Positions 17,121-34,072 of a stretch of DNA of 64,000 bases are shown here, piece after piece; position 1 is the stretch's first letter, and every line of letters starts with the position of its first letter. The notes beneath the pieces were generated by a model. It saw only the letters and a list, made by a program, of their open reading frames with translations, was not told the DNA's origin and did no database searches. The stretch is from assembly GCA_020440705.1 (NCBI GenBank), contig JAGRNP010000001.1:51787-115786 (forward strand), written 5' to 3'. The translations under genes were made by a program, and so were the position numbers. This DNA comes from a bacterium (GTDB lineage: Bacteria > Krumholzibacteriota > Krumholzibacteriia > LZORAL124-64-63).

Positions 17121-18512
17121 CTACTTCTCCGCCACCAGCAGCTTCATGTACGCCTTGATGTCGGTGCACCCGTCGAAGCCCCACGTCGCCTCGATGACGG
17201 CGTCCTGGCGCTCGCGCGAGATCACCGCCTCGCTGTTGGCCCGGAACTTGGCGATCAGTTCGTCGTCGCTGAGCGGGTTCTGCGGGCTGCCCTTGGCGTG
17301 GTCGACGGTCTTCTCGAAGGAGCGCCCGTCGCTGGTCGTGATGGTCGCGATGGCCCGCTTGGTGCCGGGGAACATGGCGTCGATCTCGGCGTTGGCCACG
17401 ACCTTGATCTTGCCGAGCAGCGCCCGGATGCGCGGGTCGAAGAGCTTGTCCTGCTCGAAGCTGTTGGGGTAGACGCCGCCGTCGGCCGCGACGGCCGCCA
17501 GGCAGTAGGGCAGGCTGTGGTCGGCGGTCTCCTTGGTCTGCGGATCGTACTTCGAGGGGTCCGAGAGGATGTCCGCGCCGCGGGCGGTGGTCTGGATGTG
17601 GATCGAGGCCACGTCCTCGGCCACCAGGCCGTTCTCCTTCATGATGCCCTGCACCGCCGACATGGGCTGGTGCGTGAGGGCCTCGGTGGGGAAGGCCTTG
17701 TAGCCGCAGTCGGTGATGAGGAACGTCTCCCCCAGCCCCTCGAGCAGGATCTCCGGCTTCAGCTTCACGGTCGGGATGACGTGTTCGAAGCCCTCCTTGC
17801 CCTCGATGACCTCGACGGGTCCCTCGTAACCCTCGGCGGCCATCTGGGCCGCGAGCACGCCGGCCTGGGTGGCCAGGGGGTCGGCGGTGTTCTTCATGTT
17901 GGTCAGCGCGCCGGCCACGACGCCGCCCTGGGTGTAGTGGCTGCTGCCGCTGATGCCCGCCGCGGCGACCATCTGCGCCCGGTCCAGGCCGTACATGCGA
18001 CCGGCCACGAAGGGGCTCACGAACTGCGTCAGGGTGGCGTGGTGCCAGCCCACCTCGCGCACGCCCGGGAAGCAGGCCAGGCACCAGCGCATCTCCAGCT
18101 CGTACGCGATCATGATGCCGACCAACGCCTCGCGGCCGTCGCGGCCCAGGGCTTCGGCCGGACTGATGGCGCCGAAGATGATGTCCGAGGGATGGCTCGG
18201 GTCCTGCTCCCAGTAGATGTCGTTGTAGTCGAGGGCCCGCACCAGGAGGCTGTTCATCAGGGCCGCGCCGGCGGCGTTGGTCCGGGCGCCGGTGCCGATG
18301 AGCGTGCTCTCGGGCGTGCCGCCCTGGCGGGCGATGAAGCGGTACATGGCGGCCATGTCCCTGTTGTTCACGGCGGCCAGGGCGCAGCCCACGCTGTCCA
18401 GCAGGAAGCGCTTGGCCTCCTTGATGGAGACCGCGGGGATGTCCTCGTATTTCAGGTTGATGGCGAAATCGGCCATCCTGCCGGTCAGGCTGTCTTGGGG
18501 GGCGTGGCTCAT
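17121..18512 (-). CDS. MmgE/PrpD family protein (2-methylcitrate dehydratase / IRG1-like)
   Basis: 463 aa with full-length PrpD-family similarity (...AAGISGSSHYTQGGV...CGYKAFPTE...). GGAGG RBS. Confidence 0.88.
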   Translation of the reverse strand: MSHAPQDSLTGRMADFAINLKYEDIPAVSIKEAKRFLLDSVGCALAAVNNRDMAAMYRFIARQGGTPESTLIGTGARTNAAGAALMNSLLVRALDYNDIYWEQDPSHPSDIIFGAISPAEALGRDGREALVGIMIAYELEMRWCLACFPGVREVGWHHATLTQFVSPFVAGRMYGLDRAQMVAAAGISGSSHYTQGGVVAGALTNMKNTADPLATQAGVLAAQMAAEGYEGPVEVIEGKEGFEHVIPTVKLKPEILLEGLGETFLITDCGYKAFPTEALTHQPMSAVQGIMKENGLVAEDVASIHIQTTARGADILSDPSKYDPQTKETADHSLPYCLAAVAADGGVYPNSFEQDKLFDPRIRALLGKIKVVANAEIDAMFPGTKRAIATITTSDGRSFEKTVDHAKGSPQNPLSDDELIAKFRANSEAVISRERQDAVIEATWGFDGCTDIKAYMKLLVAEK

Positions 18513-18618: not shown

Positions 18619-19980
18619 CTAGACCACGCCCTGGTCCAGCATCGAGTCGGCGACCTTCAGGAAGCCGGCGATGTTGGCGCCGTTGACGTAGTTGCCCGGC
18701 GTGCCGAACTCGTTGGCGGCCGCCATGCTCGCTGCGTGGATGCTCTTCATGATGCCGTGCAGTTTCTGATCGACCTCTTCGCGGGTCCAGTTGTAGCGCA
18801 TGCTGTTCTGCGACATCTCCAGGCCGGAGACCGCCACGCCGCCGGCGTTGGCGGCCTTGCCCGGACCGTAGAGGATCTTCGCGTCGACGAAGTGGTTCAC
18901 GCCGTCGGGAACCGTCGGCATGTTCGCGCCCTCGCTGACGACGTAGACGCCGTTGCGCAGCAGGTTCTTGGCGTCCTGCTCGTTGATCTCGTTCTGGGTC
19001 GCCGAGGGGAACGCGCAGTCGGCCTTGTGGTCCCACAGGGGATTGTGGTCCATGCCCGGATCGACGGCGGTGTAGACGGCGCCGGGGAACTTGTCGGCGT
19101 ACTCCTTCACGCGGCCGCGCCTGACGTTCTTCAGATCCATCAGGAAGGCCAGCTTCTCGCGCGTGAAGCCCGCCTCGTCCAGGATGTAGCCGCCGCTGTC
19201 CGAGCAGGTGATCGGCTTGGCGCCCAGGTCGAGCAGCTTCTCGATGGTGTACTGGGCCACGTTGCCGGAGCCCGAGACCAGGGCGGTCTTGCCCTCGAGG
19301 GTCTCGTTGCGCGTACCCAGCATCTCGGCCGCGAAGTACACGGCGCCGTAGCCGGTGGCCTCGGGCCGGATGAGGCTGCCGCCCCAGTTCAGGCCCTTGC
19401 CCGTCAGCACGCCCACGAACTCGTTGCGCAGCTTCTTGTACTGGCCGAAGAGGAAGCCGATCTCCCGGCCGCCGACGCCGATGTCGCCCGCCGGGACGTC
19501 GGTGTTGCCGCCGATGTGGCGGAAGAGCTCGCTCATGAAGCTCTGGGTGAAACGCATGACTTCGAGGTCGCTCTTGCCCTTGGGGTCGAAGTCCGAACCG
19601 CCCTTGCCGCCGCCCATGGGCAGCGTCGTCAGGCTGTTCTTGAAGACCTGCTCGAAGGCCAGGAACTTGAGGATGCCCAGGTTCACGCTCGGATGGAAAC
19701 GCAGGCCGCCCTTGTAGGGGCCGATGGCGCTGTTCATCTCGATCCGGAAGCCCTTGTTGACCTGGACCTCGCCCTTGTCGTCCACCCAGGGGACACGGAA
19801 CAGGATGACACGCTCGGGCTCGACGATGCGCTCCAGGATCTTGGCCTTGCGGTACTCCGGACGCTTGTCCAGCACCGGCCAGATGGATTCGACGACCTCT
19901 TCGACCGCCTGGTGGAACTCCACTTCCGCAGGGTTCTTGGCGATGACGTTTTCCATGAAGGCAGCAACGTTCTGGGCCAT
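18619..19980 (-). CDS. gdhA: NADP-specific glutamate dehydrogenase (hexameric 50-kDa class)
   Basis: 453 aa, MAQNVAAFMENVIAKNPAEVEFHQAVEEVVESIWPVLDKRPEYRKAKILERIVEPERVILFRVPWVDDKGEVQVNKGFRIEMNSAIGPYKGGLRFHPSVNLGILKFLAFEQVFKNSLTTLPMGGGKGGSDFDPKGKSDLEVMRF... matches E. coli GdhA along its full length. Confidence 0.92.
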   Translation of the reverse strand: MAQNVAAFMENVIAKNPAEVEFHQAVEEVVESIWPVLDKRPEYRKAKILERIVEPERVILFRVPWVDDKGEVQVNKGFRIEMNSAIGPYKGGLRFHPSVNLGILKFLAFEQVFKNSLTTLPMGGGKGGSDFDPKGKSDLEVMRFTQSFMSELFRHIGGNTDVPAGDIGVGGREIGFLFGQYKKLRNEFVGVLTGKGLNWGGSLIRPEATGYGAVYFAAEMLGTRNETLEGKTALVSGSGNVAQYTIEKLLDLGAKPITCSDSGGYILDEAGFTREKLAFLMDLKNVRRGRVKEYADKFPGAVYTAVDPGMDHNPLWDHKADCAFPSATQNEINEQDAKNLLRNGVYVVSEGANMPTVPDGVNHFVDAKILYGPGKAANAGGVAVSGLEMSQNSMRYNWTREEVDQKLHGIMKSIHAASMAAANEFGTPGNYVNGANIAGFLKVADSMLDQGVV

Positions 19981-20759: not shown

Positions 20760-23501
20760 CTAGTCGGGATCGTCGAGCCGCCGCGCGGCGTTGGTCACCG
20801 CGCCGATCATCGCCGCCAGGCCGCTGCCCGCCTCGACCTCCAGGTCGCTGACGAAGGTCACGTCGAGCATGCCCGGCATGCGCACGCCGGTGCGCGAGTA
20901 GTTCATCTCGGCCAGGGCCAGACTCCAGCCCTGGAACCAGCACTCGAGCTGGTAGAGCCGGGTCTGGTCGCCCGCGAAGTGGACCAGCAGGTCGATGTCG
21001 CTGTCGGGCCGGGCGGTGCCGTTCTTCACCGAACCGTAGAGGTACACGCCCTTGACCTGGAACCGCTCGCGGTCGAGGGCCCGCACCATGCGCTCGGCCA
21101 TGCGGAACCGCCAGCGCCAGAACTGCCGGGGCTCGTGCAGCGGCTGCGGTGCGCTGGCGGTGCCGCCGACGCTGCGGGCCGCCTCCTCCGGGCCGAGCGC
21201 CGCGAGGGCGCGGTCCTGGTCGCCGTTCAGGTACACGTGCAGCACGTCGCCCCCCGTGACCGCCGGCACGTCGATGACGCGCACGCATGCGGCGAGATGG
21301 GCGTGGTCGGGCAGCAGTTCGGGCAGCAGGTTGGCGCTGCCGGTCAGGAATTCGGCACTGAAGACCACGTCGGCGTCGTCCGGGTACAAAGGCAGGTAGC
21401 GGATCTGCGCCTCGACCAGATCCTGGAAGAAGTGGGTGCCGAAGCTGAGGTCCGGCAGGTAGTTGCCCACCTTGCGGGCCACCTCGATCAGCATCGCCGT
21501 GTTGTTGATGTCGGCGTAGGTCACGCGCACGCCCAGCTTGATGTCGCCCCGGCTGCCCCAGCGCCCCGGCCCGATCAGGATGAAGCGGCGCTTGGGGAGC
21601 AGGCCGTTCAGCAGGCCCACGGCCCGGCCCACCTCGGCCATGGCCTCGGCCGAGGGCAGCTTGCCGTACACGGCCGGATCCACGTACACGATGTGGGAGA
21701 TCGGCGGCACGTAGCCGTTGGAGATGTGGCGGTGCGCCGTGAAGATGACGCGGTCGGCCGGGATGTCGGTGGGGATCGGGGCCGGCGCCGCGTCGCCCGT
21801 CATGGCCTGCGGGCGGCACTGCAGCAGGTAGAACTCCTTGCCGTCGTGGGCGAATTCCAGGTCGACCGGCGTGTTCATGTACTGGGACAGGGTGCTCAGC
21901 AGGGCGTTCATCTTGTCGATGAAGTCGGTGCCGCCGAGCAGCCCCTCCATGTCCGGCACGAGGTCGTCGTTCTGCGGATCGATCATCAGGCGCGAGACCT
22001 GCTCGAGCCGCCCGTTGCGCAACACGGAGAAGACCTTGTCGATGAGCGGGTACTGGCCGTCCGCCTCCTTCAACAGGGCCTCCAGCGGCACGGTCTCGAA
22101 CGAGTTCGTCTCGAGGTTGATGACGTCGGCGTAGCGCGGGCAGTAGCGCAGGATCTCGTCGAGGGACTGGTTGGCGCGCAGACCCGGCTGCGACGGCACC
22201 GCCAGCACGGGGAAGTCGTCGGCGGTGCGATCGACCGCGCGGGTGCCCAGGCCCGGCACCAGGCGGATCAGGCCGTCGTCGCGCTGGATGCGCGGCGACC
22301 AGCGGAACTCGTTCAGGCTGAAGGCCACCCCCGCGAAGGCCGGCAGCCAGTAGCGCCCGACGCGCGTGCCGACGACCTCCTGGATGAGAATGCCCATCTC
22401 CTCCACGAACTCCTGCAGGCCCCGCTCGCGGCGGTACTCGATGGGGTCGGGCCCGAGCACCGACGCCCACACCTCGGCCACGGCCTCGAGCAGGGCGTCC
22501 ATGCGCTCGGTCTTGTTGCCCTGGTTCGCCAGGAAGAGGCTCTTGTACTTGCCGGAGAAGGCGGTGCCGAAGCGGTCCTCGAGCAGGCTCGAGCTGCGGA
22601 TGATCAGCGGCACCTCGCCGAAGTAGTCCAGCGCGCGCGAGAGGCCGGTGAGCACCTCGGGCGGGAACGAGCTGTTCTTGAACAGCTGGATCATGTTGGG
22701 GTACTCGCGGCGGACCTGCGTGATGTCCTTGAACTTCTGGTCCATCACGTCTTCGAGGTCGTTCAGCTTGATGAAGTCCATGATCGCGTCGGAGATGATC
22801 GACCACGTGCGCGGGAACTTCACCTCGCCGAGGCCGAGCTGGGCGATCTCGGGCTGCTCGAGGATCCAGCGGGCGAGCAGCAGGCCCGACGCCTTGCCCC
22901 CCAGCTTGCCGTAGCTGCCCTGGGGCATGATCACGTGGTCGAGGATGTTGTGGAAGTCGGTGATGCGCACCACTTCCTTGGCCACGTTGATGAAGTCGAG
23001 CTGCTCGGTGAGGAAGCGCTGGATCAGCGAGACGCGCAGGCTCTTCAGGGTGCTGTGGTTCAGGCCGCTGCGCCCGAGCAGGAGCTCGTGGTACTTGCGG
23101 ATGGCCTGGGCGATCTCGGGCATGGTGCTGCGGGGGTCGCCCACCACCGTGCTGAAGAAGCCGGCCTCCTCCTCCTTGACCCACTTCTCGAGCCGCTGCT
23201 CGATCTCCTCGTCGCCGAGGAATTCGGCCGCCAGTTCGAAGGGCGCGCCGCTGAACAGCGGCGAGCCCTCGAGGTCGAGCCGGAAGCCGGGCGCGTTGCC
23301 GTCACGCACCGAGACGCCCGACTGGGCGTCGTCGAACTCGGCCAGCATCTGCTGGGCGCCCGACAGGCCGATGGAGCAGAGATGGTTCAGCATCTTGCGC
23401 GAGACCCGCAGGAACTGTTTCCTGCGGGTCCGGCGCATCTCGTCGATCCGGTCGCGCCAGTTGCCGACCGGAAGATCGGGGCTGTCGGGGCGGTCGGTCA
23501 C
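20760..23501 (-). CDS. PPDK_N (PEP synthase/pyruvate phosphate dikinase nucleotide-binding ATP-grasp) domain protein with a C-terminal Pol-beta-type nucleotidyltransferase domain
   Basis: 913 aa. Central part ...PQGSYGKLGGKASGLLLA...LIIRSSSLLEDRFGTAFSGKYKSLFLANQG...LIGPGRWGSRGD...GTHFFQDL... is PEP-utilising N-domain-like. C-terminus ...GVYLYGSVKNGTARPDSDIDLLVHF... carries the minimal NTase motif GS-x9-D-x-D. GTG start 4 nt after the gdh2 stop. Confidence 0.82.
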   Translation of the reverse strand: MTDRPDSPDLPVGNWRDRIDEMRRTRRKQFLRVSRKMLNHLCSIGLSGAQQMLAEFDDAQSGVSVRDGNAPGFRLDLEGSPLFSGAPFELAAEFLGDEEIEQRLEKWVKEEEAGFFSTVVGDPRSTMPEIAQAIRKYHELLLGRSGLNHSTLKSLRVSLIQRFLTEQLDFINVAKEVVRITDFHNILDHVIMPQGSYGKLGGKASGLLLARWILEQPEIAQLGLGEVKFPRTWSIISDAIMDFIKLNDLEDVMDQKFKDITQVRREYPNMIQLFKNSSFPPEVLTGLSRALDYFGEVPLIIRSSSLLEDRFGTAFSGKYKSLFLANQGNKTERMDALLEAVAEVWASVLGPDPIEYRRERGLQEFVEEMGILIQEVVGTRVGRYWLPAFAGVAFSLNEFRWSPRIQRDDGLIRLVPGLGTRAVDRTADDFPVLAVPSQPGLRANQSLDEILRYCPRYADVINLETNSFETVPLEALLKEADGQYPLIDKVFSVLRNGRLEQVSRLMIDPQNDDLVPDMEGLLGGTDFIDKMNALLSTLSQYMNTPVDLEFAHDGKEFYLLQCRPQAMTGDAAPAPIPTDIPADRVIFTAHRHISNGYVPPISHIVYVDPAVYGKLPSAEAMAEVGRAVGLLNGLLPKRRFILIGPGRWGSRGDIKLGVRVTYADINNTAMLIEVARKVGNYLPDLSFGTHFFQDLVEAQIRYLPLYPDDADVVFSAEFLTGSANLLPELLPDHAHLAACVRVIDVPAVTGGDVLHVYLNGDQDRALAALGPEEAARSVGGTASAPQPLHEPRQFWRWRFRMAERMVRALDRERFQVKGVYLYGSVKNGTARPDSDIDLLVHFAGDQTRLYQLECWFQGWSLALAEMNYSRTGVRMPGMLDVTFVSDLEVEAGSGLAAMIGAVTNAARRLDDPD

Positions 23502-23505
23502 GCCA

Positions 23506-24795
<1,290 letters not shown>

Positions 24796-24923
24796 GGCCG
24801 GTCTTCCTCTGCTGGGGTGTGCGGACGGGCGTCGCGTCCCGTCACCTCACGCGCGGCCGGCCCCGGGGCCGGCGGGATTTTCCGGAAATCTCACCACGCC
24901 ATCTCCGGCAGGCAAGAAGATTC

Positions 24924-27905
24924 TCACTCGCCGGCGGCCGCGGCGGCTCCGTCCGGGCGCCGCACCACGCCCCGGCCGCTGCGGCCGTCGATGAGCACCT
25001 CGAGGGGGGCGTCGAGGCGGATCCGGCGCAGGAACCGGCCCACCTCCTCCCCGGGCTGGGCGTCGAACCAGTCCCAGTCGAGGCGGCCGTTGCCGCGGGT
25101 CGAGTTCACCGTCAGGTAGCCCACCTGGAAGCTGGTCAGGTTCTGGAAGAAGTGGGTGCCCTGGCTCGGCGTGACCTTGAAGTCGTCGAGGTCGGTCTCG
25201 ACGATGACGCGGGCCCCCGAGATCTGCTCCCAGCGCACGGGGATGCCGAGCCAGCGGTCGGACGAGCCCCAGCGACCCGGCCCGATCAGCAGGTAGGGCC
25301 GTGCGTCCTGGACCATGGCGCGGTTGGCCTTGCCGATCTCGTCGGCGATGGCCTGGGTCTCGGCCCGGTCGAAGCGGTCGCGGGGCACGTAGAGGATGTC
25401 CCGGATCTGGTCGCGCCGACCGTTGCCCAGGGCGACGTCGGTGGCGACGAGGGCATCGTCGTCCGCGAGGGCTTCCGGCGGGACCTCGGGCGCGTCGTAG
25501 CCGGCGGCCAGGGGACGGATCTGCAGGAAGCCGAACTGGTGCGGCCGCAGCTCGCCGTCGCCCAGCACGACGGCGAACTCGATCTCCACCTCGGCGCTCA
25601 TGGTGCGGCGGCCGAGTTCGAGCAGCAGGCGCAGGATCTCCGCGAGGGGGAACAGGTCCGCCTTCAGCACGTGGGCGAAGGTCACCAGCCGCGAGCCCGG
25701 CCGGTGGATCCCGTCGTAGATCATGTTGTTCTCGGGCGAGAAGACCGACCCGATGGGCTCGAGGGTGCCGTGCCGCTCGGCGTCCGCCAGTTCGAGGTGG
25801 GCCAGGTTGAAATCGTCCCGGTCGCCCGGATACGCCTCGGGGTGGCTGATGTCGACCGCCCAGAACCGCCGCTGGGAGAGTTTCAGCCAGTCGTTGATGG
25901 TGCCGAACTGGGGCAGCGAGGTCGGGTTCGCCGGGCTGAAGCGCAGGGCCCGGCCCCCCTCCACCACGGTGCGCCCGAGGCCCAGGGCCACGGTGGCCAC
26001 CCCGTCCCTGGGATCCATGCCGTCGGCCGGATAGAAGTTCGACGAGTTGGCCACGCCCGAGAAGTGCGGGTAGTCGAAGTTCTCGTACCGCTGCCCCACC
26101 ATCTGCTGGATGATGACGGCCATCTTCTCTTCCTCGATGCGGTTGCTCGTGGCCTCGATGTAGCTCTTGGCCGCCCGCGAGTAGGCCGAGGCGAAGACGA
26201 GCTTGATGGCGTCGCAGAGCTGGTCGAGGCGCACCTTCAGGTCGTCGTGGCTGTTGGCCAGCATGTAGGTCGAGTAGACCCCGGCGAAGGGCTGGAACTG
26301 GCTGTCCTCGAGCAGGCTGCTCGAGCGCACGGCCAGGGGGTAGCGCACCTGCTCGAGGAAGGCCTCGAGGTCGCCGTAGATCTCCGACGGCAGCTTGGCC
26401 GCGAGGAAGGCCGCGTTGATCTCCTCGTCCGGCATCTCGCCGGTGACCCGTGCCCGCAGGTCGTCCTGCTTCATGAACGAGTCGAAGACGTCTGTGCCCA
26501 CCACCGCCGTGGACGGCACCTGGATCAGGGTGCCGGGGTAGCGGTTGGTGACGCCGTAGCGGAACAGGATCGAGTTCATGAAGGCGAGACCGCGCCCCTT
26601 GCCGCCGAGCGAGCCGCCCCCGATGCGCACGAAGGCGCTGCTGGTGTCGAAGTGCCGGCGCGAGAAGTCGGCCACGACGCCACGCTGGCTCTCGGTGCGG
26701 AAGCGGGCGATGATCCGGATCAGGTACTCGCGCAGGTCCTCCACCTCGGCGAACTCCGTCACCTTCACCGGGCGCAGGTCGGCGGCCAGCTCGAACTCCG
26801 TGCGGGCGCGCAGCCAGTTGCTGAAGTGGTCGTGGCTCGCGTGATGCCGGATCGATTCGCCCGGCACGGTCCGCAGCAGCTGCAGCAGCGTCTTGAGGTC
26901 GGGCGCGCGCCCCACCTCGGTGCCGTCCGGCAGGCGGAAGACGAAGTCGCCGAAGCCGAAGTTCTCGAGCATGAAGTTGCGCAGCTCCTGCAGCAGGTGC
27001 CGGCTCTTCTTGCGGATGAAGCCGGCGCCGATCTCGTCGGCCACCTCGCTGAGGTCCTCGTCCGTCGACTGCAGCACGGCCGGCGTGTGGGGGTCGACGA
27101 ACTTCACGCGGCGGATGAACTCCACCCCCGCATCCGGGTTCTCGACGCCCTGCCAGGGGAAGCGCCCGTCCGAGATCACGCCCAGCAGCGAGTCCTTGTA
27201 CTCCTGGTAGTACTCCCAGGCCTCCTCGAAGGTGTTGGCCAGGAGGATCTTGGGCCGCGCGCGCAGGCGCAGCAGGCGGTGGCTGATGTTGATGCCCTCG
27301 ACCATCAGGCTCTGGGTCTGGTTCAGCACCTCGGTGTAGATCAACGGCAGGTAGGACGAGTAGAAGCGCACCGAATCCTCGATGAGCAGGATGCAGCGCA
27401 CGTCGCCGTAGCGCGTGTCGTGGGCGACGTTCTTGCGGTCCTCGCAGTACTTGATGATCCCGAGCAGCAGGCGGACGTCGCCGTTCCACAGGAAGTAGCG
27501 GTCGATGCAGCGGACCGTGTCGCGCTCCTGCAGGTGCTGCAGCTCGCGGGGGTTGAAGGCGAGGTTGTAGATGTCGAGTTCGGGGTGCCGTCGCTTGACC
27601 CGACGGGCCAGCTGGGTGGCGTCCATGTCGCCGAGCCGGCTCATGGTGATGACCATGTCGTAGCGACGGGTCTCCATGAGGCGCAGGGCCTCCTCGCCCG
27701 TCGAGGCCCGCGTCACGTGGGGCGGGAAACTCAGGTTGAGCTCGCGGTACTCGTTCAGGAGCACCTCGGTCAGCCGGCCCCCCTCCTCCAGGGTGAAGGC
27801 GTCGTACATGCTCGCCACCAGCAGGATCTCCTGCACCCGGAACGGCATGAGGTGGCCGAAACCGGTGAACGAACGGGTGTTGCGCGTGTCCGAGAGTCGG
27901 GGCAT
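24924..27905 (-). CDS. Tandem receiver (REC, first one degenerate) domains fused to a PPDK_N ATP-grasp domain. Paralogue of the 20760-23501 protein.
   Basis: 993 aa with an AAGGAAG RBS. The N-terminus MPRLSDTRNTRSFTGFGHLMPFRVQEILLVASMYDAF... is pseudo-receiver-like (no DD pair). The second REC is VRCILLIEDSVRFYS.... It then reads GGGSLGGKGRGLAFM...LAVRSSSLLEDSQFQPFAGVYSTYMLANSH...LLIGPGRWGSSDR...GTHFFQNL..., homologous block by block to the other PPDK_N protein. Confidence 0.82.
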   Translation of the reverse strand: MPRLSDTRNTRSFTGFGHLMPFRVQEILLVASMYDAFTLEEGGRLTEVLLNEYRELNLSFPPHVTRASTGEEALRLMETRRYDMVITMSRLGDMDATQLARRVKRRHPELDIYNLAFNPRELQHLQERDTVRCIDRYFLWNGDVRLLLGIIKYCEDRKNVAHDTRYGDVRCILLIEDSVRFYSSYLPLIYTEVLNQTQSLMVEGINISHRLLRLRARPKILLANTFEEAWEYYQEYKDSLLGVISDGRFPWQGVENPDAGVEFIRRVKFVDPHTPAVLQSTDEDLSEVADEIGAGFIRKKSRHLLQELRNFMLENFGFGDFVFRLPDGTEVGRAPDLKTLLQLLRTVPGESIRHHASHDHFSNWLRARTEFELAADLRPVKVTEFAEVEDLREYLIRIIARFRTESQRGVVADFSRRHFDTSSAFVRIGGGSLGGKGRGLAFMNSILFRYGVTNRYPGTLIQVPSTAVVGTDVFDSFMKQDDLRARVTGEMPDEEINAAFLAAKLPSEIYGDLEAFLEQVRYPLAVRSSSLLEDSQFQPFAGVYSTYMLANSHDDLKVRLDQLCDAIKLVFASAYSRAAKSYIEATSNRIEEEKMAVIIQQMVGQRYENFDYPHFSGVANSSNFYPADGMDPRDGVATVALGLGRTVVEGGRALRFSPANPTSLPQFGTINDWLKLSQRRFWAVDISHPEAYPGDRDDFNLAHLELADAERHGTLEPIGSVFSPENNMIYDGIHRPGSRLVTFAHVLKADLFPLAEILRLLLELGRRTMSAEVEIEFAVVLGDGELRPHQFGFLQIRPLAAGYDAPEVPPEALADDDALVATDVALGNGRRDQIRDILYVPRDRFDRAETQAIADEIGKANRAMVQDARPYLLIGPGRWGSSDRWLGIPVRWEQISGARVIVETDLDDFKVTPSQGTHFFQNLTSFQVGYLTVNSTRGNGRLDWDWFDAQPGEEVGRFLRRIRLDAPLEVLIDGRSGRGVVRRPDGAAAAAGE

Positions 27906-28007: not shown

Positions 28008-28862
28008 TCAGAACCCGAAGCCGAAAGCCAGCCGGACCTCGCCGCCCCGGGCCCCGGCCGGCTCGGCGAACACGGTCTCGTGGGCACGGGGCACGGCCCA
28101 GCCGACGAGGGCGCCCACCGACGCGCCGGCGAGGATGTCGGTGGGGAAATGCCGTCCCGCCCGGTAGCGCAGGTAGCCCGTCGTCGAGGCCGCCGCGAGG
28201 CATCCGCCCCACACCCACGCCTCGGCGTCGGCGTCGGGGTGCAGCCGGGTGTAGACGGTGGCGAAGAAGACCATGGCGGCGAAGGCGTTGGCGGTGTGGC
28301 CGGACGGGAACGACCGCGTCGTGGTGCGGGCGCCGCGCAGGGCCGCCGGAATCGCCGGATCGTCGCTGTAGGCGTAGGGGCGCGGCCGGCCGACGAGGTT
28401 CTTCAGGAGATAGGTGATGCCCGTGGTCACGAGAGCCGTCTCGAGATACATGACGGCGATGTCGTCGCGCTGCCCACCGTGGCCCGCGTCGAGCGCGAGG
28501 CCGAGGGGCGCCGCGGCGCAGGCCGCCACGAGCCAGTCGCTGGCCCGGGCCGCGGCCGGCGACCAGTTGTCGACCGCGGAGCGGTCCAGGGCGTTCAGCG
28601 CCGCCGGGTCCAGGGGCTCTCCGGCCGCCGGTCCCGGTTCGTCTCCCCGGTCGAGCCACCAGCCCAGACCGTAGGCCAGCACGCCGCCGACGACGAGCGG
28701 CGCGTCGACCCCGTCACCCGTCCGGTAGCCTGCCTGGGCGGCGGCCTCCCTCGGGGCCGTGACGCCGGCCAGGGCCAGGACCACCAACGTCGCCGCGGCC
28801 CGGCGACCGGAACGGGACCGGCCGGCCGTCGGCGGTGTCGAGTGGCGATGCGGTCCGCTCAT
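28008..28862 (-). CDS. PAP2-family phosphatase (acid phosphatase/phosphatidic acid phosphatase-like), secreted or membrane
   Basis: 284 aa with an Ala-rich signal region and the three PAP2 motifs KNLVGRPRP, SFPSGHT and RAGRHFPTDILAG. Confidence 0.85.
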   Translation of the reverse strand: MSGPHRHSTPPTAGRSRSGRRAAATLVVLALAGVTAPREAAAQAGYRTGDGVDAPLVVGGVLAYGLGWWLDRGDEPGPAAGEPLDPAALNALDRSAVDNWSPAAARASDWLVAACAAAPLGLALDAGHGGQRDDIAVMYLETALVTTGITYLLKNLVGRPRPYAYSDDPAIPAALRGARTTTRSFPSGHTANAFAAMVFFATVYTRLHPDADAEAWVWGGCLAAASTTGYLRYRAGRHFPTDILAGASVGALVGWAVPRAHETVFAEPAGARGGEVRLAFGFGF

Positions 28863-29025
28863 GGTTGCTCCCGGAGTCGCGGGGAAATCACGGTGGCGGC
28901 GGGCGGGACGATATCAGGGCCCGCCCACCCCGTCCAGCCCGTCGGCCGCGACCGGGAGGGCCGCAGACGCGACGACCCCGGGCAGCGGGCCCGGGGTCGT
29001 CGGTCGCCGGGACGGGGCGGCCGGG

Positions 29026-30588
29026 TCAGGCCTTGAACTCCACGCCCTGGGCCAGGTGGATCTCGCCGCCCCAGTTGATGGTATTTGTCTGCCGACGCAT
29101 GTACATCTTCCAGGAGTCGGAACCGGACTCGCGCCCGCCGCCGGTCTCCTTCTCGCCCCCGAAGGCGCCGCCGATCTCGGCGCCCGAGGTGCCGATGTTG
29201 ATGTTGGCGATGCCGCAATCGGAACCGAGGAAGCTGAGGAAGGCCTCGCCCTCGTTCACGCTGTCGGTGTAGATGGCGCTGCTCAGACCCTGCGGCACGT
29301 CGTTGTGCATCCGGAAGGCCTGGTCGATCTTCCTGTACTTCATCACGTACAGGATCGGCGCGAAGGTCTCGCTCTGCACGATCGGCTTGCGGTTGTCGAT
29401 CTCGATGATCGTCGGCTGCACGAAGGTGGCCGCCCCGAAGGGCTTGAGCACCTTGCCGCCGTACAGCACCTTGCCGCCCTGCTCCCTGGCCGCCTTGATG
29501 GCGTCCTCGTAGTCCTTCACGGCGCCCTCGTCGATCAGGGGACCCATCAGCGTCGCCGGATCCAGCGGATCGCCGATGTTCACGCGCTTGTAGTTGGCGA
29601 TGAGCTTCTTCACGAAGGTGTCGTAGACCTTCTCCTGGATGATCAGGCGGCGCGTGCTGGTGCAGCGCTGGCCCGCGGTGCCGACGGCGCCGAAGAAGGC
29701 GCTGGCCAGGGCGCCCGTCAGGTCGGCCTTCTCGCTGATGATGATGGCGTTGTTGCCGCCGAGCTCGAGGATCGCCCGGCCGAGGCGCGCGCCCACGACG
29801 CCGCCGATGCGCTGGCCCATGCGGGTCGAGCCGGTGGCGCTGATCAGGGGCACGTCGTGGTCGTTGACCAGCTTCTCGCCGATGGTCGAGCCGCGGCCGA
29901 TGGTCACGCAGCTGATGCCGGGCGTGATGCCGTTCCGCGCGAAGACCTCGTTGACGATGTTCTGGCAGGCGATGGCGCAGAGCGGCGTCTTGCTCGAGGG
30001 CTTCCAGATGCAGCTGTCCCCGCACACCCAGGCCAGGGCGGTGTTCCAGGCCCACACGGCCACCGGGAAGTTGAAGGCGCTGATGACGCCGACGACACCC
30101 AGGGGGTGCCACTGCTCCATCATGCGGTGCTTGGGCCGCTCGCTCTGCAGCGTCGGGCCGCTCAGGTTGCGGCTTAGCCCCACGGCGAAGTCGCAGATGT
30201 CGATCATCTCCTGCACCTCGCCCAGACCCTCGGTGTGGATCTTGCCCATCTCCAGGCTCACCAGGGCGCCGAGCATCTCCTTCTTCTCGCGCAGGGCCTC
30301 GCCGATCTGGCGCACGACCTCGCCGCGCTTCGGCGCGGGCAACGCCCGCCAGTCGAGGAAGGCCTGCTTGGCGTACTTCATCACCACGTCGTAGTCCTTC
30401 GTGCTGGCCTGCTCGATCTTCGCCAGCACCTCGCCCGTGGTCGGGTTCCTGGTGACGAGCATGTCCTTGCTGTTCGCGAACCACTCGCCGCCGCAGTTGG
30501 CGCCCTTCATGGTGGGCTTCAGGCCCAACGTCCGGAAGATCTGGGCCTTGGTCACCTTCCTGGTCGCCTGCGTGGTCTTCTTGGCCAT
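29026..30588 (-). CDS. Alpha-aminoadipic semialdehyde / piperideine-6-carboxylate dehydrogenase (ALDH7 'antiquitin' family)
   Basis: This is the real 520-aa part of the chimeric 808-aa ORF. MAKKTTQATRKVTKAQIFRTLGL...IPAPKRGEVVRQIGEALREKKEMLGALVSLEMGKI...ELGGNNAIII...GTAGQRCT...ETFAPILYV...SGAEIGGAFGGEKETGGGRESGSD is co-linear with human ALDH7A1. Confidence 0.9.
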   Translation of the reverse strand: MAKKTTQATRKVTKAQIFRTLGLKPTMKGANCGGEWFANSKDMLVTRNPTTGEVLAKIEQASTKDYDVVMKYAKQAFLDWRALPAPKRGEVVRQIGEALREKKEMLGALVSLEMGKIHTEGLGEVQEMIDICDFAVGLSRNLSGPTLQSERPKHRMMEQWHPLGVVGVISAFNFPVAVWAWNTALAWVCGDSCIWKPSSKTPLCAIACQNIVNEVFARNGITPGISCVTIGRGSTIGEKLVNDHDVPLISATGSTRMGQRIGGVVGARLGRAILELGGNNAIIISEKADLTGALASAFFGAVGTAGQRCTSTRRLIIQEKVYDTFVKKLIANYKRVNIGDPLDPATLMGPLIDEGAVKDYEDAIKAAREQGGKVLYGGKVLKPFGAATFVQPTIIEIDNRKPIVQSETFAPILYVMKYRKIDQAFRMHNDVPQGLSSAIYTDSVNEGEAFLSFLGSDCGIANINIGTSGAEIGGAFGGEKETGGGRESGSDSWKMYMRRQTNTINWGGEIHLAQGVEFKA

Positions 30589-30638
30589 GGCTATCGTTCC
30601 TTTACCTGGTTGTCGCCGTCTCCGGCGGGGTGGTCCGG

Positions 30639-31964
30639 TCAGTAGACCGTCAGTTCTTCCTTGCATGTGATCTCGAGGGTCGCCAGCTCGTCGAGCACCG
30701 GATTGTAGATCTCCGGCGTGACGGGCCGCAGGACCCCGCGGGCGGAAATGCCGCCCTCCAGGATGAGCCGGGCCGCGATGGCCGCGGGCAGGGACACCGT
30801 GCGCGACATGGAGGTGTCGCCGTAGCGGATCCCGAAGTCGACGAGGCTGCTGGTCAGGCGTTCGTAGTGGTTGTCCTCCGGGAACCACGCCTTGAACTCG
30901 TGGAACAGGACGACCATGTCGCGTTCGCCCGGGTTGTAGGTGAGCTTGTCGAGCATGATGTCGCCGAGGGCGTCGAGCGGCGACACCGCGGCGCGGCCGA
31001 TGGGCCGGCGCGAGAAGAGGCCGAGCCAGTGCATGTTCCACGGCGGCAGCGTGTCCGCCGGCAGGCCCATGCGGTGGGCGGCCACGACGCGCAGGTCGTC
31101 CTCCGGGCCGGCGCCGAGCAGACCCCGCATGTAGTCGGCGTAGGTGAGGTCGGCCGCCGGCCTTTCGGCCATGTCGAGCATGCCCACCTTGACGAGGTTG
31201 TGCATGGTGTCGCACCAGCCGATGTAGCGCAGCGTGCCCCGGAACAGCGACCGCACTTCGGCGCCGAGACCGTAGATCTCCCGGTACTCGAGGCTGTCGC
31301 GGTTCGGGTAGGCCTCGAACACGCCCGCCCCCGGCACGGTCAGCAGGTGCATGTCGCGGAAGAGACGCTCCGGCTCCACGATCACCTCGTGGTTGTCGCG
31401 CCAGTAGCGCGCCCCGTTGCGGCTGGCCAGCAGCACGCCCCGCGGCGCCCACGAGAACTTGTAGCCGAAGGGGTTGTCGTTGGCCTCGGGCGCCGGCAGA
31501 CCGCCGCAGTACGAACGGAAATGCCGGATCTTGCCGCCGCGCGCGTGCACGTCGTCGATGATGCGCATGGCCGACATGTGGTCGATGCCCGGATCGAGGC
31601 CGATCTCGTTGAGGAAGATCAGGTCCTTGTCGCGGGCGTCGGCATCGAAGGCCTGCATCTCCGGCGACACGTACGAGGCCGTGACCAGGTTGCGCCGGTG
31701 CTGGAGGCAGTGGTTGGCCACCAGCGGGTGGTAGCTGTACGGCACGAGGCTGATCACCAGGTCGTGGGCCGCCACCAGCTCCGACAGGGCGCGGTCGTCG
31801 TCGAGCACCAGGCGCAGGGCCGTGCCGTTGGGCTCGTCGCCGATCAGCTTCTGGGCGTCCTCGACGGCGAGGCTGGTCACCGTCAGGGCGTAGTCGCGCC
31901 GCAGCAGGTACCGGATCAGGGGACCCGCCACCATGCCCGCGCCGAGCACCAGGATCTTCTTCAC
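30639..31964 (-). CDS. Saccharopine dehydrogenase (NADP+, L-glutamate-forming; LYS9 / AASS-SDH-domain type)
   Basis: GTG start preceded by GGGGAGGGG. VKKILVLGAGMVAGPLIRYLLRR...VTASYVSPEMQAFDADARDKDLIFLNEIGLDPGIDHMSAMRIID...; 441 aa. Confidence 0.85.
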   Translation of the reverse strand: MKKILVLGAGMVAGPLIRYLLRRDYALTVTSLAVEDAQKLIGDEPNGTALRLVLDDDRALSELVAAHDLVISLVPYSYHPLVANHCLQHRRNLVTASYVSPEMQAFDADARDKDLIFLNEIGLDPGIDHMSAMRIIDDVHARGGKIRHFRSYCGGLPAPEANDNPFGYKFSWAPRGVLLASRNGARYWRDNHEVIVEPERLFRDMHLLTVPGAGVFEAYPNRDSLEYREIYGLGAEVRSLFRGTLRYIGWCDTMHNLVKVGMLDMAERPAADLTYADYMRGLLGAGPEDDLRVVAAHRMGLPADTLPPWNMHWLGLFSRRPIGRAAVSPLDALGDIMLDKLTYNPGERDMVVLFHEFKAWFPEDNHYERLTSSLVDFGIRYGDTSMSRTVSLPAAIAARLILEGGISARGVLRPVTPEIYNPVLDELATLEITCKEELTVY

Positions 31965-31993
31965 GCTCGTCCCCTCCCCGGCCGGCGACCCCG

Positions 31994-33319
31994 TCACCGG
32001 CCCGCCTTGTCCAGGTGTTCCTGCAGATACCGGTAGCCCGGGGCGAGCTCGCCCCGGTGACAGATGACGGCCTTCTTCAGGTGCGGCGGCAGATGCAGCG
32101 CCTCGAACCCGACGGCGTAGTCGGCCTGGGCCAGGGCCGGCACCATCGCGCCCAGCACCGAGCTGAAATGCAGCGAACTCTCCCGCGGCAGCTCGCACGG
32201 CAGGTTGTCCACCGACATGACCACGGGCCCCGGACCGACCACGCCGTCGGCGACGGTGTCGGTCTCGGGATCGTACACGTAGCAGGGCGCATCGGGCATG
32301 GGCGCCTTCAGCGTCACCTCGATGCTGCCCCCGATGTCGCAGCTGATGTCGCCGATGACGCGCAGGCGCGGCGATCGATCGGGCCCGAAGTTGGCCCGGA
32401 CCCACTTCTTCGTGACCAGGCGCGGGTAGGCGTCGGTCCAGTAGATGGTGTTCAGCAGCGCGTCGAGGTGGGGCAGGTGCCGCTCGAAGACGCCGCGGTA
32501 GTTCTCCGGGCGCTGGTAGTAGTCCTGCAGCACGAACTGGGCCTCGTCGGACCGCGGCCGCACCATGTCCTCCTCGCGGAAGGTCACCTTGAGCAGGGGC
32601 CCGCGTCCGGCCACGTCGCCCTCGGCGGCGGCGGCCAGTTCGGCCGGCGTCACCTCGGTGACGGGCAGGCAGTCGAGGATCGCCGCGCAACCCCGGGCCA
32701 CGTTCCCGTACCCGGCCACGCCGATGACGAGGGGACGTTCCAGGGCCCACAGCCCTTCGCTGCGGATGCGGGCGCCGATCCGGCGCAGGTGCTCCTGCAC
32801 CTCGCCCAGGCTGCCGTACTCGTAGGCGTGCCGCAGCTCGCCGAGAGGCGTGGCGATGCCCTCGTTCTCGAGGCGCGCCGCCAGGGCGACCAGGGTCTCG
32901 ACCGCGCCCGCGTAGCCCGCGTGCAGGCTGAAGAAGATCAGGCGCCGGTTCTGCTCGTCGGCGATCCGCTCGTAGTCGATGAGGGTGGCCCCCACATCCA
33001 GCAGATGCCGCAGCATGGGCATGTTGTAGGCCTGGCCCTTGATGGTGTGCGAGAAGTAGAGGTAGGTCTTGCCCGGTTCGAGTTCGGCGACCGGGATCTC
33101 CTTCACCGCCAGGATCACGTCGGCGGTGCGCAGGTCCGGGACGATGCGCGCACCGACCGCCTCGTATTCCACGTCGCCAAAGACCCGGATCGGCGAGGTC
33201 TGGACCACGACATCGAGATCGTGGCGGTCCCGGAGGGTCGCCACGTCATCCGGAACGAGGGGCACGCGACGTTCCCACTGGTTCTTGTCCTCGCGCCGGA
33301 TGCCGATCGTCACGCCCAT
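31994..33319 (-). CDS. Lysine-ketoglutarate reductase / saccharopine dehydrogenase (L-lysine-forming; AlaDH/PNT-fold, LYS1 / AASS-LKR-domain type)
   Basis: 441 aa, MGVTIGIRREDKNQWERRVPLVPDDVATLRDRHDLDVVVQTSPIRVFGD...VIGVAGYGNVARG... Confidence 0.83.
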   Translation of the reverse strand: MGVTIGIRREDKNQWERRVPLVPDDVATLRDRHDLDVVVQTSPIRVFGDVEYEAVGARIVPDLRTADVILAVKEIPVAELEPGKTYLYFSHTIKGQAYNMPMLRHLLDVGATLIDYERIADEQNRRLIFFSLHAGYAGAVETLVALAARLENEGIATPLGELRHAYEYGSLGEVQEHLRRIGARIRSEGLWALERPLVIGVAGYGNVARGCAAILDCLPVTEVTPAELAAAAEGDVAGRGPLLKVTFREEDMVRPRSDEAQFVLQDYYQRPENYRGVFERHLPHLDALLNTIYWTDAYPRLVTKKWVRANFGPDRSPRLRVIGDISCDIGGSIEVTLKAPMPDAPCYVYDPETDTVADGVVGPGPVVMSVDNLPCELPRESSLHFSSVLGAMVPALAQADYAVGFEALHLPPHLKKAVICHRGELAPGYRYLQEHLDKAGR

Positions 33320-33598
33320 GGGTCACCTGCCGGGATGGTCGCAATCCGGGAGGCCGGGATTGCCGCAGAGGGTTGTGGGACATCGCGAAGGAAACGCCGA
33401 CGGACGGCCCGTCGCCGCCCCAAAGCTAGGAGGCCCGCTGGGCCCCGTCAAGTGCCCCTCCACGGCGCCCTGCCACCCCACCGGGCGCCAAGTTCGACCG
33501 TGACAACGGCCCGCCCGGCCCGCTAGACTGGGCGGGTCCACCGCCGGTCGCCGGACCGGTCGGCACCCCGCCCGCGAGGCCAGCCAAGGAGCCGTGCC

Positions 33599-34072
33599 AT
33601 GAGCCCCAACGCGTACGCCGTCCCGGTCAAGCAAGCCCTCCAGTTCTTCAGCCGGACCTGCAGCGTGTTCAACGAGGACGACTCGGCCTATGCCCCCACG
33701 CCGGGCCAGTTCACGGTGGCCCAGCATGTGGCCCACGTGGCCCAGACCATCGACTGGTTCCTCGCCGGCGGCTTCTCTCCCGAAGGCTTCGACCTCGACT
33801 TCGCCAGCCACCAGGCCCAGGTCCGCGCCGTCGACTCCCTCGCCGAAGCCATGACCTGGCTGGCGCGCAGCGTCGACGCCGCCTCGGCGACCCTCTCCGC
33901 CCAGTCGGCCCAGGACATGATGGCTCCCATCGCCGAGGGCCCCATCATGGCCGGCGAGCCCCGCGCGGCCATCGTCGCCGCCATCGCCGAACACACGGCC
34001 CACCACCGCGGCTCGCTCGCCGTCTACGCCAGGCTCCTCGGCTACGCGCCGCCGATGCCGTATTCCGCCTGA
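33599..34072 (+). CDS. DinB-family (DinB_2/DUF664) metal-dependent protein
   Basis: AAGGAG RBS. 157 aa with HVAHVAQTIDW...EHTAHHRGSLAVY, the His-triad pattern of the DinB/YfiT fold. Confidence 0.78.
   Translation: MSPNAYAVPVKQALQFFSRTCSVFNEDDSAYAPTPGQFTVAQHVAHVAQTIDWFLAGGFSPEGFDLDFASHQAQVRAVDSLAEAMTWLARSVDAASATLSAQSAQDMMAPIAEGPIMAGEPRAAIVAAIAEHTAHHRGSLAVYARLLGYAPPMPYSA

Follow-up and report, generated by a model that had tools for sequence, protein, structure and literature searches.

Here we describe three adjacent genes on the minus strand of a 64-kb stretch of chromosomal DNA (referred to as the window) from a Candidatus Krumholzibacteriota-like bacterium, whose predicted products are three enzymes of lysine metabolism: a lysine-2-oxoglutarate reductase (LKR, EC 1.5.1.8), a saccharopine dehydrogenase (SDH, EC 1.5.1.9/1.5.1.10) and an aldehyde dehydrogenase of the ALDH7 family (EC 1.2.1.31) acting on 2-aminoadipate-6-semialdehyde (AASA) and its cyclic form, piperideine-6-carboxylate (P6C). 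In the order of reading along the minus strand, the genes are as follows:

31994..33319, minus strand: lkr, predicted monofunctional LKR of the AASS N-terminal-domain type; ATG start, 441 aa, TGA stop
30639..31964, minus strand: sdh, predicted L-glutamate-forming SDH of the Lys9 / AASS C-terminal-domain type; GTG start, 441 aa, TGA stop
29026..30588, minus strand: aasadh/pcd, predicted ALDH7 (antiquitin)-type AASA/P6C dehydrogenase; ATG start, 520 aa, TGA stop

These genes were picked out by GC content at codon positions and by a simple gene caller based on codon usage. Their GC content at third codon positions (0.93-0.97, compared to an overall GC content of ~0.70) is characteristic of coding sequence in this genome. 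Plus-strand open reading frames (ORFs) that overlap them (e.g., 28759..30177, 30630..32036 and 32015..33526) were set aside as shadow ORFs, which are typical of 70% GC DNA and appear in all frames. A gap of 29 nt (31965..31993) separates lkr from sdh, and one of 50 nt (30589..30638) separates sdh from the ALDH7 gene. The coordinates, the shared direction and both gap lengths given in an earlier reading of this DNA (hereafter, the original prediction) were all reproduced, and the strand, which it left unstated, is minus. For sdh, an alternative GTG start at 31997, which overlaps the lkr stop codon by 4 nt, was used in the gene call on an ENA contig (L001). We consider this start less likely than the one at 31964, since the latter has a GGAGG motif 8 nt upstream and coincides with the start of the ORF in 42 of 58 homologues.

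The surroundings are those of an ordinary chromosome, with genes for EF-G, TypA, FBA, an IleRS-type synthetase, ZnuABC, TamB/Omp85 and two-component systems among those in the window. The base composition of the three genes is that of the rest of the window, and thus there is no sign of recent transfer. The LKR protein is identical to NCBI entry MCB1181862.1 ('hypothetical protein KDM41_00360 [bacterium]'), and its closest relatives are encoded by metagenome-assembled genomes of Candidatus Krumholzibacteria/Krumholzibacteriota.

Family assignment and active-site residues

LKR matched two Pfam families, AlaDh_PNT_N (PF05222, 87.8 bits) and AlaDh_PNT_C (PF01262, 23.0 bits, exactly at the cut-off). 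Its best match among solved structures was the LOR domain of human AASS (8e8u, E 1.9e-58), where residues 5-434 of LKR align with residues 8-446 of the chain. Yeast Lys1 (373 aa, compared to 441 aa for LKR) matched over N-domain residues 3-140 only, at E 1.4e-16, and alanine dehydrogenase and an AlaDH/PNT protein scored E 8e-6 and 7e-5, respectively. The original prediction had named grouping with alanine dehydrogenase or transhydrogenase as the finding that would speak against an LKR. Judged by the hierarchy of E-values against solved structures, the measure used for both LKR and SDH, no such grouping was found, and the full-length match to the AASS LOR domain is far better.

The alignment further places LKR R18, K73, E74, H91, E117 and R126 at the positions of yeast Lys1 R18, K77, E78, H96, E122 and R131, and all six residues are invariant in 80 of 80 prokaryotic homologues. 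K73 and H91 also correspond to human K93 and H111. The human residues K93/H111 and the yeast residues K77/H96 are described as a Lys/His dyad acting in acid-base catalysis (PMC13174811; Kumar et al. 2012, cited in PMC9490328), and yeast R18 and R131 as carboxylate-binding arginines (PMC13174811; ref. 18 of PMC9490328). Together with the family match, these residues identify the protein as an AASS-type lysine-2-oxoglutarate reductase that is predicted to form saccharopine. As to the cofactor, LKR R248 aligns with human Arg267 and F247 with Ser266, in an alignment that crosses a variable region; the arginine position is occupied by K or R in 63 of the 80 homologues. Human Arg267 touches the 2'-phosphate of NADPH, and the NADH-dependent Lys1 has an Asp there (PMC9490328, PMC13174811). 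The basic residue suggests that LKR would use NADPH, and hence that the reaction would be driven toward saccharopine formation.

SDH matched Sacchrp_dh_C (PF16653, 284.2 bits) and Sacchrp_dh_NADP (PF03435, 61.4 bits). The closest solved structures were the Magnaporthe saccharopine reductase (1e5l, E 4.8e-92), yeast Lys9 (2axq, 5.3e-89) and the SDH domain of human AASS (5l78, 2.5e-85), with the next relative, the lysine-dehydrogenase-type Pyrococcus PH1688 (3abi), following at E 3.2e-6. Beyond these, no solved structure matched at E <= 0.01, and thus no homospermidine or carboxynorspermidine enzyme. For this protein, the competing placement named in the original prediction was among spermidine/homospermidine synthase-like members of the family, and here too the saccharopine dehydrogenases were far ahead. 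The motifs GxGxV, LNExGxDPGxDHM, NPxxYKFSWxPxGV, YxNRxS and RGTxR are conserved, and the N-terminal dinucleotide-binding motif G8-x-G10-x-V12 is kept in at least 95% of 59 SDH sequences. Just past beta-2, SDH has neither the Asp of the human enzyme nor the Arg of the fungal ones, an alignment reading that is not decisive between NAD+, the cofactor of AASS, and NADP(H), that of Lys9. We thus regard this protein as a glutamate-forming saccharopine dehydrogenase in terms of its predicted activity.

The third protein passed the NCBIfam equivalog for L-piperideine-6-carboxylate dehydrogenase (NF050084) with 777.2 bits against a cut-off of 730, and reached 312.9 bits against a cut-off of 770 for the next NCBIfam family. 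Its matches among solved structures were 10fm (1e-177), the bacterial Pcd 6rtr, second-best at 2e-174, antiquitin 2jg7 (2e-166) and human ALDH7A1 4x0t (2e-161). E127, E275, R308, C309 and T310 align with E120, E267, R300, C301 and T302 of the seabream enzyme, such that the catalytic cysteine (C309) and the general base (E275) are retained. ALDH7 enzymes have a specific Glu and Arg that form ion pairs with AASA through its amino group and its carboxylate (PMC11362210, citing Tang 2008; Luo & Tanner 2015), and by the same alignment these are E127 and R308. The proposal that this gene encodes an ALDH7/antiquitin-type AASA dehydrogenase was therefore borne out, as the protein passes the equivalog cut-off and keeps the substrate-binding residues.

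Predicted operon structure and distribution

The order of lkr and sdh finds a parallel in fused proteins. Along a fused LKR/SDH protein of 964 aa (P0193, drawn from a representative library without names), LKR aligns with residues 17-450 (39% identity) and SDH with residues 463-958 (30% identity). Since the two align in sequence along one fused protein, the gene order mirrors the domain order of AASS-type enzymes. On either side of the three genes, we identified the following features:

33423..33451, minus strand: putative sigma-70-type promoter, with TTGACG (33451..33446), a 17-nt spacer and TAGCTT (33428..33423), ~100 nt upstream of the lkr ATG
33320..33598: divergent intergenic region of 279 nt between lkr and a DinB-family gene (33599..34072, plus strand)
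28971..29001, minus strand: terminator-type hairpin 25 nt past the ALDH7 stop codon, with a 12-bp perfect GC-rich stem, a 7-nt loop and a weak U tract

When six orthologous upstream regions were aligned, all of them had CTTGAC and, in the -10 element, TA..TT, although the mean identity of the sequences was only 60%, and this conserved element probably acts as the promoter of the operon. The 81-nt context of the hairpin folds at -51.4 kcal/mol (z = -4.4), with none of 200 shuffles doing as well, and non-homologous GC-rich hairpins followed by U runs lie at the same position past the ALDH7 gene in four related loci (L082, L084, L002 and L006). In addition, a Shine-Dalgarno-like motif precedes each of the three starts. 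Given the putative promoter, the short gaps, the Shine-Dalgarno-like motifs and the terminator-type hairpins, we infer that the three genes would be transcribed as one unit.

A lysine riboswitch at the head of this unit is unlikely: an Rfam search over 28700..33800 gave no match to it or to any other RNA leader at E <= 1, the 104-nt lkr leader folds no better than shuffled sequences (z = 0), and six orthologous leaders shared no consensus structure. A terminator-like site at 33414..33398 that emerged from a pattern scan was rejected as not significant, as it is not conserved in relatives and the yield of the scan does not exceed chance expectation. On the DinB side of the intergenic region, ahead of what is a DinB/mycothiol-S-transferase-like gene, lies a second promoter-like sequence (33500..33529, plus strand; GTGACA, 18 nt, TAGACT), both hexamers of which are conserved in orthologous loci.

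With each GTDB species represented by a single genome, a pattern scan yielded 176 loci with an LKR relative, and the linkage counts given next are taken from the best 80 of these. An SDH gene lies directly downstream of the LKR gene in 77 of the 80, with a median gap of 32 nt. The loci span Krumholzibacteriota, Acidobacteriota, Anaerolineae/Caldilineae, Aminicenantes, Neomarinimicrobiota and WOR-3, along with Zixibacteria, Gemmatimonadota, Bacteroidales, Clostridia, Myxococcota and archaea of the Thermoplasmatales. A linked aldehyde dehydrogenase gene was found in 4 of the 80, all Krumholzibacteria-like. Among the 51 loci that extend at least 1.7 kb beyond the SDH gene, two carry an aldehyde dehydrogenase gene of any kind and 49 carry none (e.g., L010, L017, L047 and L050). 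The full trio is present in seven Krumholzibacteria-type loci (L002, L004, L006, L008, L082, L083 and L084), with LKR identities that range from 71% to 58%. As the trio recurs in these seven related genomes, and the LKR-SDH pair in loci from many phyla (77 of the 80), a chance arrangement can be excluded.

Three of the seven (L082, L083 and L084) are further long contigs of the clade, in which the trio sits in an extended syntenic block. The block runs in the order TypA, thiamine-binding protein, esterase, DUF4920, PepSY, DinB, LKR-SDH-ALDH7, PAP2, PPDK_N protein, glutamate dehydrogenase (GDH) and PPDK_N/nucleotidyltransferase. All-against-all clustering of the genes at the 80 loci revealed no other consistently linked neighbour of LKR-SDH, the shared ones being housekeeping genes that each occur in a few related genomes.

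The LKR family itself is large, with at least 6840 clusters at 90% identity scoring E <= 1e-10. A library clustered at 50% identity has 601 representatives at E <= 1e-30, some of them monofunctional, at ~440 aa, and others fused, at 900-1100 aa. The genes lkr and sdh have reportedly been found in only 27 of 1478 genomes. Our comparison shows that the pair is far commoner among metagenome-derived genomes of prokaryotes than older genome surveys suggested. The view with which we started, that this route is uncommon in bacteria and seldom found as a tidy operon, accordingly needs to be divided: the pair is widespread in metagenome-derived genomes and its genes are nearly always adjacent, whereas linkage to ALDH7 is indeed restricted to the Krumholzibacteria-like clade. 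One could go further and see the separate-gene LKR-SDH pair as a commoner, largely unannotated lysine module of uncultured prokaryotes, with the operon of the window as a 'committed catabolic' derivative of a versatile ancestral pair. We offer this tentatively, as a conjecture that we consider rather unlikely.

In several loci, a class-III aminotransferase gene lies no more than a few kb from LKR-SDH: in three of the Thermoplasmatales (L017:11327-12643, L025:6103-7419 and L034:12234-13568), and also at L028:3390-4598 and L065:8290-9489. By eye alone, the N-termini of these proteins resemble lysine 6-aminotransferase. Pairs that have no linked ALDH7 may run differently from the one described here, either in the biosynthetic direction or, where a lysine 6-aminotransferase-like gene is near, as an NADPH-to-NADH cycle. 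Speculatively, lysine 6-aminotransferase and LKR/SDH would arrive at the same product by two routes which, if opposed, would form a cycle exchanging NADPH for NADH.

Pathway direction and known counterparts

In the proposed scheme, LKR would condense lysine with 2-oxoglutarate and reduce the resulting imine with NAD(P)H to give saccharopine. SDH would then split saccharopine oxidatively at the opposite side of its bridging nitrogen, using NAD(P)+ and water, into glutamate and AASA, the latter being in equilibrium with P6C, and ALDH7 would oxidize the semialdehyde with NAD+ to 2-aminoadipate. On balance, the epsilon-amino group of lysine would end up on 2-oxoglutarate as glutamate. Because the last oxidation is practically irreversible, the ALDH7 step would set the catabolic direction and remove a reactive intermediate. 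The family matches and the catalytic residues support the three-step reading put forward in the original prediction, from lysine to 2-aminoadipate by way of LKR, SDH and ALDH7, and we consider it likely that the three genes form one operon that converts L-lysine to L-2-aminoadipate via saccharopine. A catabolic direction is indicated by the presence of ALDH7 in the operon, by an LKR of the AASS rather than the Lys1 type and by the basic residue at the position that determines NADPH use. The physiological purpose would presumably be the use of lysine as a source of nitrogen and carbon, though we are less sure of a nutritional rather than a stress-related role (PMC7253579) than of the chemistry and the operon.

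The closest parallel is the eukaryotic combination of AASS and ALDH7A1, in which the same three chemistries follow in the same order and the domain order corresponds to the gene order seen here. LKR matches the human LOR domain over its full length, C-lobe regions absent from yeast Lys1 included; the Lys/His pair is common to both, and an LKR Arg aligns with the 2'-phosphate contact. SDH matches the human SDH domain at E 2.5e-85, and ALDH7 matches human ALDH7A1 at ~1e-161 and has the same substrate-binding residues. In eukaryotes, however, AASS is fused and mitochondrially targeted and ALDH7A1 is unlinked to it, whereas the window encodes three separate polypeptides without the interdomain linker. 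In our view, the three proteins are probably the prokaryotic counterparts, encoded by separate genes, of the fused AASS and the ALDH7A1 of eukaryotes.

Among bacteria, LKR and SDH were described in Silicibacter/Ruegeria pomeroyi (de Mello Serrano et al. 2012 FEBS Lett 586:905), and the genes of lysine catabolism were surveyed across bacterial genomes (Neshich et al. 2013 ISME J 7:2400), both as cited in PMC11169572, PMC9478572 and PMC7253579. The S. pomeroyi system reportedly resembles that of the window in that lkr and sdh are separate bacterial genes lying side by side and have been interpreted as lysine catabolism. It differs in belonging to the Alphaproteobacteria rather than to a Candidatus Krumholzibacteriota-like lineage, and the window has the AASA dehydrogenase gene in the same operon. 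The aasadh gene of S. pomeroyi is said to be paired with a lysine dehydrogenase gene. One-step routes to AASA, namely lysine 6-aminotransferase with Pcd in beta-lactam producers and lysine 6-dehydrogenase with AASA dehydrogenase, share with the window the type of the last enzyme and the product, 2-aminoadipate (PMC5200902). They employ a single transaminase or dehydrogenase where the window would take two steps via saccharopine; no beta-lactam or other biosynthetic genes were found in the window. Textbook accounts still give other routes as the typical ones for bacterial lysine breakdown (PMC5653290).

Several observations weigh against lysine catabolism by a discrete three-gene operon. No lysine transporter, lysine-responsive regulator or riboswitch adjoins the operon, and a scan of 43 of the 47 predicted genes of the 64-kb window revealed no 2-aminoadipate transaminase, 2-oxoadipate dehydrogenase or glutaryl-CoA dehydrogenase. 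Both the LKR and the SDH reaction can be reversed in vitro, and fungi run them toward biosynthesis (PMC9490328). The NADPH assignment of LKR leans on an alignment through a variable region, in which human Ser266 stands opposite a Phe. Finally, in one relative (L083) a PAP2 gene begins 3 nt past the ALDH7 stop codon with no hairpin in between, compared to a gap of 163 nt with a strong hairpin in the window, such that the transcription unit may be longer in some relatives and the operon boundary may vary.

The lack of downstream catabolic genes in the window would also fit the same chemistry serving stress protection, with AASA/P6C either being passed toward pipecolate through a pyrroline-5-carboxylate reductase encoded elsewhere or acting in the buffering of aldehyde stress. 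Roles of this kind have been proposed for bacterial routes from lysine to AASA, and for ALDH7 under osmotic stress. Yet an ALDH7 in the same operon would draw the semialdehyde to 2-aminoadipate, away from reduction to pipecolate, and no proC-like gene, compatible-solute transporter gene or osmoregulatory gene is adjacent; we judge a protective role to be unlikely. A different question is whether the genes work in reverse, with SDH as a Lys9-like saccharopine reductase and LKR as a Lys1-like enzyme completing the alpha-aminoadipate route to lysine, as in fungi. The fungal enzymes share the folds and the reaction chemistry of those in the window: LKR has the catalytic residues of Lys1, the best solved match of SDH is the biosynthetic enzyme of Magnaporthe (1e5l), both reactions are reversible and used for biosynthesis by fungi (PMC9490328), and most prokaryotic LKR-SDH pairs have no adjoining ALDH7. 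Physiologically, however, the fungal enzymes run in the opposite direction, and their pathway uses an aminoadipate reductase where the operon of the window has an ALDH7, which oxidizes the semialdehyde and cannot supply it. LKR is, moreover, of the AASS type (full length, E 2e-58) and not of the Lys1 type (N-domain, 1e-16), with a basic residue where the NADPH-dependent human LOR has Arg267 and the NADH-dependent Lys1 an Asp (PMC9490328). The scan of the window also yielded no gene for homocitrate synthase or aminoadipate reductase, and we hold the biosynthetic direction to be very improbable here.

Equally slight, in our estimation, is the chance that the enzymes act on other substrates altogether, with the AlaDH/PNT-fold protein catalyzing a different opine-type condensation or the Sacchrp_dh-fold protein a polyamine-related reaction. 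Such a reading could draw on the absence of an NCBIfam equivalog for either protein, on the 'hypothetical protein' label of LKR at NCBI and on an AlaDh_PNT_C match exactly at the 23-bit threshold. Set against it are the invariance of all the catalytic and carboxylate-binding residues of Lys1/LOR, the solved relatives with other substrates, which score 50-80 orders of magnitude worse, the resemblance of the LKR-SDH pair to fused AASS-type proteins and an operon partner that is predicted to be a substrate-specific AASA dehydrogenase. Conversion of lysine to 2-aminoadipate via saccharopine remains the reading that we prefer.

Annotation and neighbouring genes

The chemistry, the enzymes and the separate-gene arrangement in bacteria were already known; what is slightly new is the lineage, and the presence in that lineage of all three steps in one operon. 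For three genes of a poorly known candidate phylum, the analysis provides a secure functional annotation, from which we would predict that these bacteria can channel the epsilon-amino nitrogen of lysine into glutamate and produce 2-aminoadipate. NCBIfam holds no model for LKR or for SDH, and NCBI calls the LKR of the window and many of its relatives 'hypothetical protein'. The names given to LKR relatives at JGI vary, including 'alanine dehydrogenase', 'saccharopine dehydrogenase (NAD+, L-lysine-forming)' and 'alpha-aminoadipic semialdehyde synthase'. The missing curated models constitute a practical annotation gap, rather than their recognition being a conceptual advance.

Two ELFV-family genes of the GDH type lie downstream of the operon. 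One, at 18619..19980, passes the equivalog for NADP-specific GDH, and the other, at 23506..24795, is GDH-like and scores under the cut-offs. The latter is situated 4.2 kb and the former 9 kb downstream of the operon, past the terminator-type hairpin, the PAP2 gene and a gene for a 993-aa PPDK_N protein. GDH could recycle the glutamate from the SDH step to 2-oxoglutarate, and the original prediction had tied the two genes to the pathway on account of that glutamate. The tie found no support beyond synteny within the clade: the hairpin and other genes intervene, an insertion of three unrelated genes separates ALDH7 from PAP2 in one relative (L084), and no cluster with an ELFV dehydrogenase was found near LKR-SDH in the other 70+ loci, which lie outside the Krumholzibacteria-like clade. 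A functional operon link to GDH was therefore rejected as unsupported.

Directly downstream of the NADP-GDH gene is an MmgE/PrpD-family gene (17121..18512, minus strand), which scores 88 bits against the 2-methylcitrate dehydratase cut-off of 575. The GDH-family gene at 23506..24795 sits between genes for two large PPDK_N (phosphoenolpyruvate-utilizer ATP-grasp) proteins, in a block at 20760..27905 on the minus strand. One of these proteins (993 aa) carries a weak receiver domain at its N-terminus as well as a DUF5752 domain; the other (913 aa) carries a nucleotidyltransferase domain at its C-terminus, and its gene starts ~4 nt past the GDH stop codon. Identification of the pair as phosphoenolpyruvate synthase was rejected, given NCBIfam scores of 50-67 bits against cut-offs of 600-880. 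The PPDK_N-GDH-PPDK_N block is conserved across the Krumholzibacteria-like clade (e.g., L082:15457-21326 and L083:15150-21326), and might represent a GDH-associated regulatory or modifying system.

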